A DNA stretch of 64,000 nucleotides from the IMG/VR virus record IMGVR_UViG_3300022074_005559; one strand, 5' to 3'. Position numbers and translations under genes: made by a program. The notes beneath the pieces were generated by a model, which saw nothing but the letters and a program-made list of their open reading frames with translations, was not told the DNA's origin and did no database searches. Positions within the stretch are counted from its first letter, which is position 1; each line of letters begins with the position of its first letter. Origin of the DNA: a virus. Its lineage: Duplodnaviria > Caudoviricetes. Shown here one piece after another: positions 39,126 to 40,325 of the stretch.

Positions 39126-39362
39126 CTAAAGTATAACTGTTTTAGCTGATTTACTAAGTTCTACGTTATCATCAACTACTTTGTTGAAGTAAGCATAATC
39201 ATTACTTGGCATATCAAGTAGTTCTGACATAGAAACTCCTCCTCTCATATACCATGCGATCTTTGCCATTGTCTGTTTGATTTCAGCAACGGTCTTATCA
39301 AATCCTTTTAAGTACCCCTCAATCTCAGGATTGGTTAATGCTAAGAGGCGAAGGCGAAAAAA
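39126..39362 (-). CDS. gp51-like baseplate hub assembly domain, probably expressed by -1 frameshift from upstream gene
   Basis: 78 open codons FFRLRLLALTNPEIEGYL...AWYMRGGVSMSELLDM...TVIL*; first ATG only at 39269; missing from ORF track. Confidence 0.7.
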   Translation of the reverse strand, partial: FFRLRLLALTNPEIEGYLKGFDKTVAEIKQTMAKIAWYMRGGVSMSELLDMPSNDYAYFNKVVDDNVELSKSAKTVIL

Positions 39363-40246
39363 TGCGCTTGGTCAAATGTAAATGGCGTTGAGTATTCGTG
39401 TTTACATTCATCACATGTAGTTGTAACAGTTTTTTCCGGAATGCCTTTGTTTACACTTTCTAGGTGTTTGGTCAGTGTATCATAGAACTGGCGTTCACTG
39501 TTTTTTACAAAGTCATTGATGTGATCTGGATTATCTACTGTAGTGCCGTCTGGTGTAACGATTTGTCTTATACATCCTGAAATGTTTGCTACAGTGTAGT
39601 TAGTCATTGCTGTAAAGATTTCTGCGAATCTATGTTGTTTTTCTTCTGCACTCAAAGTACTGTCATTGACCATCATAACCAATCTGTTTTGTTCAAACTG
39701 TTCTAGATTAGAATGATTAAGTGTTTGGTAGTTCATAGGTTGTAAGTAAACCTGCATGCCTTTGTAATCAAATGGCGTGTTATACAAGTCCATGTTTACC
39801 TTAAGATCCATAAACTGTCTAAGGTCAATCTCATAGTTGTCTGTGTTTTCACACTTAGGACATGTACTGGTGTATTCCATGCCTTCACCATAACTTGCAA
39901 TGCGTATAGCAATCAATACAGTGTCTAAATCTACAATAGGCATATCCCATGCATTTTTTATGTTAGGTACACAACTGTGAATGACGTCAACTACACCTTG
40001 CCCGTTCATAAGTGCATCTGGTGTATTCACTGTTATTTCATCTCTGGTGCTCATAGGCAGAATTGGCAGTTCGCCACTTATAGGCATTTCTACTGACCCT
40101 AGTGAATAGTATCTTCCTTGGCTAGGTAGTTGCACATACACAGCAGGTTGCCGCATGTATTGCTGTAAAGGATTAGACTGATGCTGATTTTGCATAGCTG
40201 AAAGTTGTTCAGGATTCATTGAAAAGTTCTCGGGTACATCGACCAT
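39341..40246 (-). CDS. Baseplate hub assembly protein, gp26-like
   Basis: RQPAVYVQLPSQG.YY, PMSTRDEI, D.D.VLIAIRIASYG, CPKC and CDEC zinc pairs; GGAG SD. Confidence 0.75.
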   Translation of the reverse strand: MVDVPENFSMNPEQLSAMQNQHQSNPLQQYMRQPAVYVQLPSQGRYYSLGSVEMPISGELPILPMSTRDEITVNTPDALMNGQGVVDVIHSCVPNIKNAWDMPIVDLDTVLIAIRIASYGEGMEYTSTCPKCENTDNYEIDLRQFMDLKVNMDLYNTPFDYKGMQVYLQPMNYQTLNHSNLEQFEQNRLVMMVNDSTLSAEEKQHRFAEIFTAMTNYTVANISGCIRQIVTPDGTTVDNPDHINDFVKNSERQFYDTLTKHLESVNKGIPEKTVTTTCDECKHEYSTPFTFDQAHFFAFAS

Positions 40247-40268
40247 GTTTTTCTCCAGGTAAATACAG

Positions 40269-40276
40269 TATAAATA
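40269..40276 (+). promoter_or_regulatory. Late promoter TATAAATA (tape measure/head direction)
   Basis: Exact match. Confidence 0.75.
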
Positions 40277-40291
40277 TGTAAACTGCGCTTG

Positions 40292-40299
40292 TATTTATA
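40292..40299 (-). promoter_or_regulatory. Late promoter TATAAATA (gp26-like direction)
   Basis: Exact match on minus strand. Confidence 0.75.
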
Positions 40300-40325
40300 T
40301 GCGCATATAACTGGAGGTTTTTTCT

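Follow-up and report, generated by a model that had tools for sequence, protein, structure and literature searches.

The window analysed here is a 64,000-nucleotide (nt) stretch of a virus genome record (Duplodnaviria; Caudoviricetes; IMGVR_UViG_3300022074_005559), and the DNA of the locus described below is present in seawater and marine viral metagenomes. The minus strand of the window carries a gene related to the bacteriophage T4 genes 26 and 51 (P0001, positions 40246..39341). It starts at ATG 40246, encodes 301 amino acids (aa) of the PF12322 family, and ends in the sequence CAT TTT TTC GCC TTC GCC TCT TAG. The codons for Phe296-Phe297 and the T before them form a slippery heptamer, T_TTT_TTC (39362..39356), in X_XXY_YYZ register with the 0 frame, and the 0-frame TAG stop (39343..39341) lies 4 codons past it. 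Comparison of related loci indicates that this single gp26/gp51-family gene very probably makes both a short protein and one that is 72 residues longer, the latter through a −1 slip at TTTTTTC.

A one-base backward slip at the heptamer would read base C39356 twice and lead into 76 codons of the −1 frame (P0002; 39129..39356, minus strand) that run from RLRLLALTNPEIEG through a WYMRGG motif to a terminal TVIL and are closed by a TAG codon (39128..39126). The predicted long form has 297 + 76 = 373 aa and the trans-frame junction AHFFRLRLLALTNPEIEGYLK, against 301 aa for the short form. The tryptic peptide predicted to span the junction is HEYSTPFTFDQAHFFR, and the predicted C terminus of the 0-frame product is HEYSTPFTFDQAHFFAFAS. 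The earliest ATG, GTG or TTG of the −1 frame is ATG 39269, the 31st codon of the open frame, or the 30th if counted from the slip. Gene callers annotate a 47-aa open reading frame (ORF) in this frame, with no family match recorded for it. An initial annotation, made from the letters of the window, had proposed a −1 frameshift joining a gp26-like frame to a start-less second frame. Its description of the gene end, the T-TTT-TTC register, the open −1 frame and its late first start codon, the WYMRGG motif and products of 301 and about 373 aa is confirmed in every particular.

The T run is free of indels in contigs from two independent DNA runs (2023 and 2025), and this agreement on six T residues shows that it is not an assembly error. 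The window holds 18 copies of TTTTTTC, against an expectation of 14.7 ± 3.8. A lone heptamer is thus at chance level, and the significance of this one rests on conservation, frame and context. One contig from an oligo-dT RNA library (run X19) spans 39358-39587 and ends inside the T run; it comes from one run at low depth and nothing can be made of it.

Conservation of the heptamer and the −1 frame

For P0001, a gene of a marine giant phage, the nearest cultured relatives are the Rak2-like jumbo phages (Atu_ph07, Phosso, PA5oct, RaK2, 121Q, CBB, XacN1 and others). We compared 89 loci of this clade, comprising 80 viral contigs, 8 cultured phages and the window, which encode 73 distinct proteins with pairwise identities of 19–100% (median 40%). 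The in-frame heptamer is TTTTTTC in 86 of the 89 loci, TTTTTTT in two and AAATTTT in one. The codon preceding it can specify H, S, N, A, D, R or V, yet its third base is always T, and the Phe-Phe pair is constantly TTT TTC even though TTT accounts for only 65% of Phe codons in these genes. In a synonymous-site test, NNT TTT TTC is found in 20 of 23 representatives of less than 55% identity, for which the joint probability given codon usage is about 10^-17.6, a figure that assumes independent lineages, an approximation that is sound enough for sequences this far apart though not exact. These patterns indicate, at the level of sequence, that the X_XXY_YYZ heptamer is conserved beyond what the protein requires.

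The arrangement around the heptamer is equally regular. The 0-frame stop follows it by 1 codon in 40 loci and by 4 codons in 44 (84 of 89 in total), and the −1 extension is 76 codons long in nearly all 89. The initial annotation had suggested looking for a conserved FF/T-run and frame offset in homologues; the T run is found as counted above, the FF pair is invariant and the offset is constant. The extension can be aligned from its first residue, with the consensus FFRxRLL..EI....WYMRGG, in which F1, F2, R3, L7, W37 and R40 are invariant. In 68 of 69 sequences the slip is followed by a CGN (Arg) codon, in which each of the four bases occurs at the third position. Entropy at the three codon positions, taken over the first 30 extension codons, is 1.33/0.95/1.70 and follows the pattern of the upstream 0 frame (1.43/1.19/1.62). 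No start codon is conserved; in relatives the earliest ATG, GTG or TTG can be as near as codon 1 or as far as codon 47. Given this variability, and its position at codon 30 in the window, independent initiation cannot explain the extension. The −1 frame thus appears to be under coding constraint from the slip site onward.

A stem downstream of the heptamer

When helices are ranked across all positions of a gene, the one with its 5′ arm beginning 3–7 nt past the heptamer is in the top 5% in 56 of the 73 sequences, 39 of which place it in the top 1%. The arms of the stem and the distance to its 3′ arm vary among clades, and the clade-specific arm pairs include GCCUCCU/AGGAGGC, UAAGGCUUUUGAGUCU/AGAUUCAAAAGCCUUA, AGGAUCUUGCCU/GGGUGAGAUCCU and CCAUCAAGUCC/GGACUUGAUGG. 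In one clade, a 16-base-pair (bp) stem is paired in 95% of cells and has 7 pairs that are changed on both sides (compensatory); none of 500 shuffles equals its pairing, and slid controls are paired in at most 60% of cells.

In the window, the candidate stimulatory stem-loop (39349..39314, minus strand) pairs a 5′ arm, GCCUCUUAG (39349..39341), with a 3′ arm, UUGAGGGGU (39322..39314). This 9-bp stem includes 4 G-U pairs, begins 6 nt past the heptamer and contains the 0-frame stop within its 5′ arm; compared with control positions elsewhere in the gene, it falls in the top 4.6%. Its pairing is kept in four relatives (L004, L006, L008 and L209). In the cyanophage clade described below, a top-5% helix lies 3–11 nt past the heptamer in 30 of 48 distinct sequences. 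Judged from sequence, a putative stimulatory structure is thus a feature of the family.

Relationship to T4 gp26 and gp51

P0001 belongs to PF12322 (T4_baseplate; 62.9 bits against a cut-off of 24.5), with residues 82-297 aligned to profile positions 42-218. It also matches phrog_150, 'baseplate hub' (E = 1.7e-18), over positions 5-234 of 282. T4 gp26 (208 aa) and gp51 (249 aa) each span the full PF12322 profile, gp51 with about 48 additional C-terminal residues, and because each covers the whole profile the two are paralogues. Both have been described as hub assembly chaperones, with gp51 being essential and absent from the virion (PMC3004832). The short form of the window gene stops where gp26 stops on the phrog_150 profile, right behind the conserved FF pair (the endpoints are 234 for P0001, 235 for gp26 and 280 for gp51), and the predicted long form is colinear with gp51, including the C-terminal tail. 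In the hub-gene alignment (A2), conservation reaches at least 90% at C129, C132, C278 and C281, and F296 and F297 never vary. T4 gp26 and gp51 share the two Cys pairs and the C-terminal FF, gp26 reading ..CPECGK..EFFELL*. Gene 26 of T4 is, like the window gene, transcribed divergently from its neighbours, the 51-27-28-29 (tape measure) operon. T4 differs in having two paralogous genes and no slippery site (GAG TTC TTT GAG), whereas the window has one gene and two frames. Window-type proteins also have around 80 more N-terminal residues.

A hidden Markov model of the fused proteins gave only trivial scores against single T4 sequences, so profile–profile comparison was used. The fused alignment then matches the gp51 family with E = 9e-5, colinear across the slip site. 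Alone, the extension of this clade matches only the gp51 tail (residues 222-248) at a marginal E of 0.012, and matches the cyanophage extension, in the same register, at a marginal E of 0.0077; the cyanophage extension in turn matches the T4 gp51 tail with E = 2.8e-9. The similarity of the extension to the gp51 tail is therefore marginal in score and consistent in position and context. The label 'gp51-like' given to the second frame by the initial annotation holds for its colinearity with the gp51 tail and for the cyanophage comparison, and is borderline for this clade taken by itself. A second Pfam family, PF28602, is recorded on gp51-type proteins (P0005-P0096) in precomputed tables and probably models the gp51 C-terminal tail.

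AlphaFold2 models are confident, with a predicted local distance difference test (pLDDT) score of 84 for the hub part (P0001) and of 85.5 for the extension, which is modelled as a four-helix domain. Searches with these models returned no informative match in the PDB (Foldseek and VIA-align wide) or, for the extension model, in BFVD (Foldseek). A PDB sequence search returned only designed helical proteins, and blastn of the locus against phage records gave nothing useful.

Slip site and gene copy number across the T4 superfamily

We assessed gene copy number against the presence of the heptamer in cultured relatives across the T4 superfamily, taken here to include Rak2-like jumbo phages, cyanophages, pelagiphages, phiM12-like phages and KVP40/Aeh1-like phages. 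RaK2, 121Q, PA5oct, Atu_ph07, S-PM2, P-SSM2, HTVC008M, KVP40, Aeh1 and phiM12 each have one PF12322 gene, and each of these genes carries a slippery run. The sites read TCT TTT TTC GCA TAA in S-PM2, AGT TTT TTC GTA TAA in P-SSM2, GAT TTT TTC GTA TAA in KVP40 and GAT TTT TTC GAC TGA in Aeh1; HTVC008M and phiM12 have the variant T_TTT_TTT. In all six of these phages the −1 frame encodes what the records call a separate short 'gp51', and the KVP40 record describes it as 'similar to a 40 amino acid stretch at the C-terminus of T4 ... gp51'.

These 'gp51' ORFs of cyanophages and KVP40 (S-PM2p208, PSSM2_015 and KVP40.0327; phrog_634) resemble the window extension in their position, in their −1 offset and in having T_TTT_TTC 1-3 codons upstream. 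They differ in being recorded as independent ATG-started genes, none annotated as ribosomal slippage, and in encoding a shorter extension of 57-66 aa whose similarity to that of the Rak2-like clade is the marginal one given above. Among cyanophage-clade contigs, TTTTTTC is present in 82 of 82 loci, and the codon before it ends in T in 82 of 82. The annotated Met start of the cyanophage 'gp51' is present in 37 of the 82 loci and is replaced by Leu in the other 45. Searches for relatives seeded with T4 gp26 or KVP40 gp26 gave too few loci for statistics.

By contrast, T4, RB49, RB43 and Acj133 each have two PF12322 genes, of which one is short and the other is extended by a tail in the same frame; neither copy contains the heptamer. 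The short copies end ..EFFELL*, ..SFLKIL*, ..AFLKVVG* and ..ECIEVLL*, respectively. The two copies are tandem and on the same strand in RB43 (L205/L208, record 64622-65903), whereas they are divergent in T4, RB49 and Acj133; the tandem layout of RB43 also occurs in two metagenomic loci (L213 and L214).

A profile of the Rak2-like extension matches 499 proteins. Among the best 150 of these, 20 proteins of 319-351 aa carry the extension in frame at the C terminus, and the remainder are ORF calls of 44-102 aa plus one 167-aa protein. In the two in-frame long forms that we examined, the gene lies in tandem behind a second, short PF12322 gene, and the copies are 23-27% identical. The junctions of the in-frame long forms, SFRSRIL and NFRNQIL, match the predicted trans-frame FFRxRLL and lack the slippery run. 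These naturally fused proteins lend indirect support to a trans-frame protein in the single-gene phages. The two-gene lineages carry a short and an in-frame long copy, so giving up the frameshift has in no case meant losing one of the two forms.

The initial annotation, which dealt with the window, understated the scope of the arrangement, since much of the T4 superfamily retains the slip site. We put it at about even odds that −1 frameshifting at U_UUU_UUC is the ancestral and still prevailing route by which this superfamily makes a short and a long hub/tape-measure assembly factor, for which the T-evens and a few other lineages would independently have substituted gene duplication. The Rhodothermus phage RM378 has a different arrangement. 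Its sole PF12322 gene (L099, 25929-26459 and downstream) ends TCC TTT TTT TGG AAT AAG TTA TGA, and the gp51-like continuation (GISYDSEEELEKI) sits in the +1 frame rather than the −1 frame, which reflects a homopolymer error of one base in an old record or else a shift of another type.

Proposed mechanism and alternative explanations

The anatomy of the site, its conservation, the −1 coding signature that starts at the slip site, the covariation of the stem and the link between copy number and heptamer are established observations, and they strongly support the −1 frameshift proposed in the initial annotation. From them we infer that the slip is ribosomal, and we infer likewise its efficiency and the function of both forms. 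It is highly likely, judging by the comparative data, that a recoding event at the window heptamer yields the long form. In the mechanism that we propose, most ribosomes would read on to the TAG at 39343..39341 and produce the 301-aa short form, the presumed equivalent of T4 gp26. A fraction would slip back by one base with two tRNA-Phe on the UUU-UUC of U_UUU_UUC, both of which could re-pair with UUU-UUU, and this step would probably be aided by the stem around 6 nt downstream and by the close 0-frame stop. The slipped ribosomes would then read 76 codons in the −1 frame to give the 373-aa form, whose helical tail would correspond to the C-terminal tail of gp51. Assembly of the baseplate hub and tape-measure core probably requires the two forms at a set ratio, just as T4 cannot do without either gp26 or gp51.

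The same 373-aa protein would be made if RNA polymerase added one U within the U6 run and the edited mRNA were translated normally. Such transcriptional slippage would also be expected to conserve the T run and the −1 frame. The runs of nine T in RsoM2USA and seven T in XacN1 are of lengths at which polymerases do slip, and the oligo-dT contig that ends at 39358, within the run, hints very weakly in the same direction. However, six T residues are short for slippage by a bacterial or T4-type polymerase, the run is held at exactly six T followed by C in an exact X_XXY_YYZ register, and a compensated stem 3-7 nt downstream is a hallmark of ribosomal −1 frameshifting. Ribosomal −1 frameshifting fits because of this exact register, the C in the Z position, the compensated downstream stem and the adjacent stop, and we regard polymerase slippage as unlikely. 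The two frames might instead be separate genes, with the downstream frame translated alone, by coupling or re-initiation or from ATG 39269, as a free small gp51-like peptide. This is how databases annotate S-PM2 and P-SSM2 'gp51', KVP40.0327, 121Q gp595 and Phosso 319; some phages have an ATG that overlaps or follows the stop, and the 47-aa ORF called in the window is of the same kind. Yet the window has no ATG, GTG or TTG in the first 29 post-slip codons, although these are conserved with coding periodicity from the first. Start positions scatter over codons 1-47, and the near-stop Met is Leu in more than half of the cyanophage loci (45/82). Two separate genes would also leave the heptamer conservation at synonymous sites unexplained, and the natural long forms have the extension fused at exactly the predicted junction; we consider independent translation very unlikely. 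That the feature is accidental or decaying, or a homopolymer sequencing error, would accord with the chance-level count of TTTTTTC in the window and with a window stem that is not significant by itself. Against this, the DNA runs agree on T6, and more than 170 loci from several phage families share the arrangement, the frame offset and extension length being constant among them. Within the limits of sequence evidence, these comparative data refute an accidental origin, which we give almost no credence.

Several points weigh against a −1 ribosomal frameshift as the full account. The evidence consists of DNA sequence comparison, from which the long product is predicted. Low-coverage RNA contigs stop short of bridging the heptamer; they contain no inserted U, but are uninformative on transcription across the site or on U insertion. 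The stem of the window is weak when taken singly (4 of 9 pairs are G-U, and the minimum free energy over 51 nt is −11.9 kcal/mol, z = −1.55). The homology between the extension of this clade and the gp51 tail is marginal by profile (E = 0.012 and 0.0077), and a single-sequence PHROG scan found no consistent family for 43 extensions. The short copies of the tandem pairs in the two metagenomic loci (L213:1260-1295 and L214:2904-2939) retain T_TTT_TTC or T_TTT_TTT with no homologous −1 extension behind it. There the run is probably a relic of an ancestral slip site, and its retention means that the run alone is no proof of slipping. Finally, an ATG lies 1-3 codons after the slip in Atu_ph07, Phosso, 121Q, KVP40 and 37 of the 82 cyanophage loci. 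Where an ATG adjoins the stop, coupled re-initiation is possible and could add a free short peptide, yet it cannot account for the window.

Comparison with frameshifted tail chaperones

Pairs of tail assembly chaperones made by frameshifting are a textbook feature of long-tailed phages, and the P2 frameshift uses the T-rich heptamer TTTTTTG. To our knowledge T4-type phages have no recognized counterpart, and the roles of T4 gp26 and gp51 have been obscure for decades. PMC9024508 cites Xu, Hendrix and Duda (2004) for a conserved −1 frameshift in tail assembly chaperone genes. The window gene resembles lambda gpG/gpGT and P2 E/E+E′ in having a heptamer near the 3′ end of a tail-assembly gene and in the predicted production of short and C-terminally extended forms with a shared N terminus. 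It resembles lambda G/GT further in lying near a putative tape-measure gene, and its T4 relative gp51 is needed for assembly and is not in the virion (PMC3004832).

Differences are also apparent. Window-type proteins are twice as long and have two CxxC pairs, and the window gene is divergent from its neighbour rather than placed between tube and tape-measure genes. Pfam and PHROG scans give only PF12322 and phrog_150 and no tail-assembly-chaperone family. Foldseek gives only the HK97 chaperone 2ob9 (E = 0.79, probability 0.21), and VIA-align wide finds only a generic helical hairpin with Z below 8. The likeness to lambda G/GT is best read as an analogy of expression logic and possible role, not as family membership. 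To that extent the G/GT-type chaperone pair proposed in the initial annotation is upheld, but not as a match by family or by position between tube and tape-measure genes. In the lambda G/GT type, the short and long forms bind the tape measure, the extension binds the tube protein, and both forms are absent from virions. The CBB homologue gp250 (L088) is annotated 'structural protein'; if virion mass spectrometry underlies this label, particles may contain the short or the long form, in contrast to lambda G/GT.

In Escherichia coli, a −1 slip in dnaX fixes the proportion of gamma to tau, two forms of one protein. The window site is similar to that of dnaX in combining a bacterial-type −1 slip, as proposed here, with a homopolymeric heptamer, a downstream stem-loop and a close stop. 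The shift in dnaX, however, yields the shorter protein and is helped by an upstream Shine–Dalgarno-like element; no such element is seen at the window site.

The database records that we inspected for the hub genes of relatives carry no annotation of slippage, and a full-text literature search found no report of a gp26/gp51 slip; the word 'frameshift' in a Prochlorococcus phage paper concerns another gene. The present analysis contributes the survey of copy number and heptamer, the statistics for the cyanophage clade and the tandem two-gene relatives. A slip site in the single-copy homologue links T4 genes 26 and 51 as the short and long forms of one ancestral product, and gives a testable hypothesis for the function of gp26 and gp51 and for the ratio in which they are required. 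If the proposal is true, the gp26/gp51 pair would be the functional counterpart of lambda G/GT, so that T4 would be no exception to the tail-chaperone frameshift rule, and the core-gene annotation 'gp51' would be corrected, from a mis-annotated gene to a trans-frame extension, in hundreds of genomes of marine cyanophages and jumbo phages. The heptamer and its clade-specific compensated stems also form a clean natural series for the study of bacterial −1 frameshift stimulators.

Genomic neighbourhood

The start of P0001 is preceded on the minus strand by a Shine–Dalgarno sequence, GGAG (40253..40256), 6 nt before the ATG, and by a match to the T4 late-promoter consensus, TATAAATA (40292..40299), 46 nt before ATG 40246. 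A second TATAAATA box on the plus strand (40269..40276) stands back to back with the first and faces a divergent gene. The motif occurs only 3 times in the window, two of them in this 79-nt gap between the divergent genes, which suggests that the boxes are divergent T4-type late promoters and that both genes may be co-expressed late.

The divergent gene (P0219; 40326..42218, plus strand) encodes 630 aa from a TTG start 8 nt after GGAGG (40313-40317). Its product has a Gly/Ala-rich hydrophobic stretch at residues ~130-185 and a tape-measure-like composition. It weakly matches RaK2 ORF088 by BLASTP (E = 0.002, 23% over 203 aa), a virion protein annotated as tape-measure-like, and the same divergent neighbour is present in RaK2, 121Q, PA5oct and CBB. 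Pfam and PHROG scans gave no tape-measure identification for P0219 or KVP40.0326, and P0219 is without any family match. The tape-measure-like neighbour of the initial annotation is thus divergent as described and has the weak RaK2 match, but lacks a Pfam or PHROG counterpart; P0219 may be a tape measure or another virion protein.

In KVP40 (L100, 184642-188385), the order is a duplicated tail-tube gene, gp26, the gp51-like extension and a 656-aa protein of unknown function, which is the same as the order tube, G, T and tape measure in lambda-like phages. The gene next after gp26/'gp51' in S-PM2 (S-PM2p209; L104) encodes 1167 aa with matches to PF01129 and PF03496 (both ADP-ribosyltransferase), PF18013 (phage tail lysozyme) and tape-measure PHROGs. 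It could be a tape measure with enzymatic domains encoded directly downstream of the frameshift gene.

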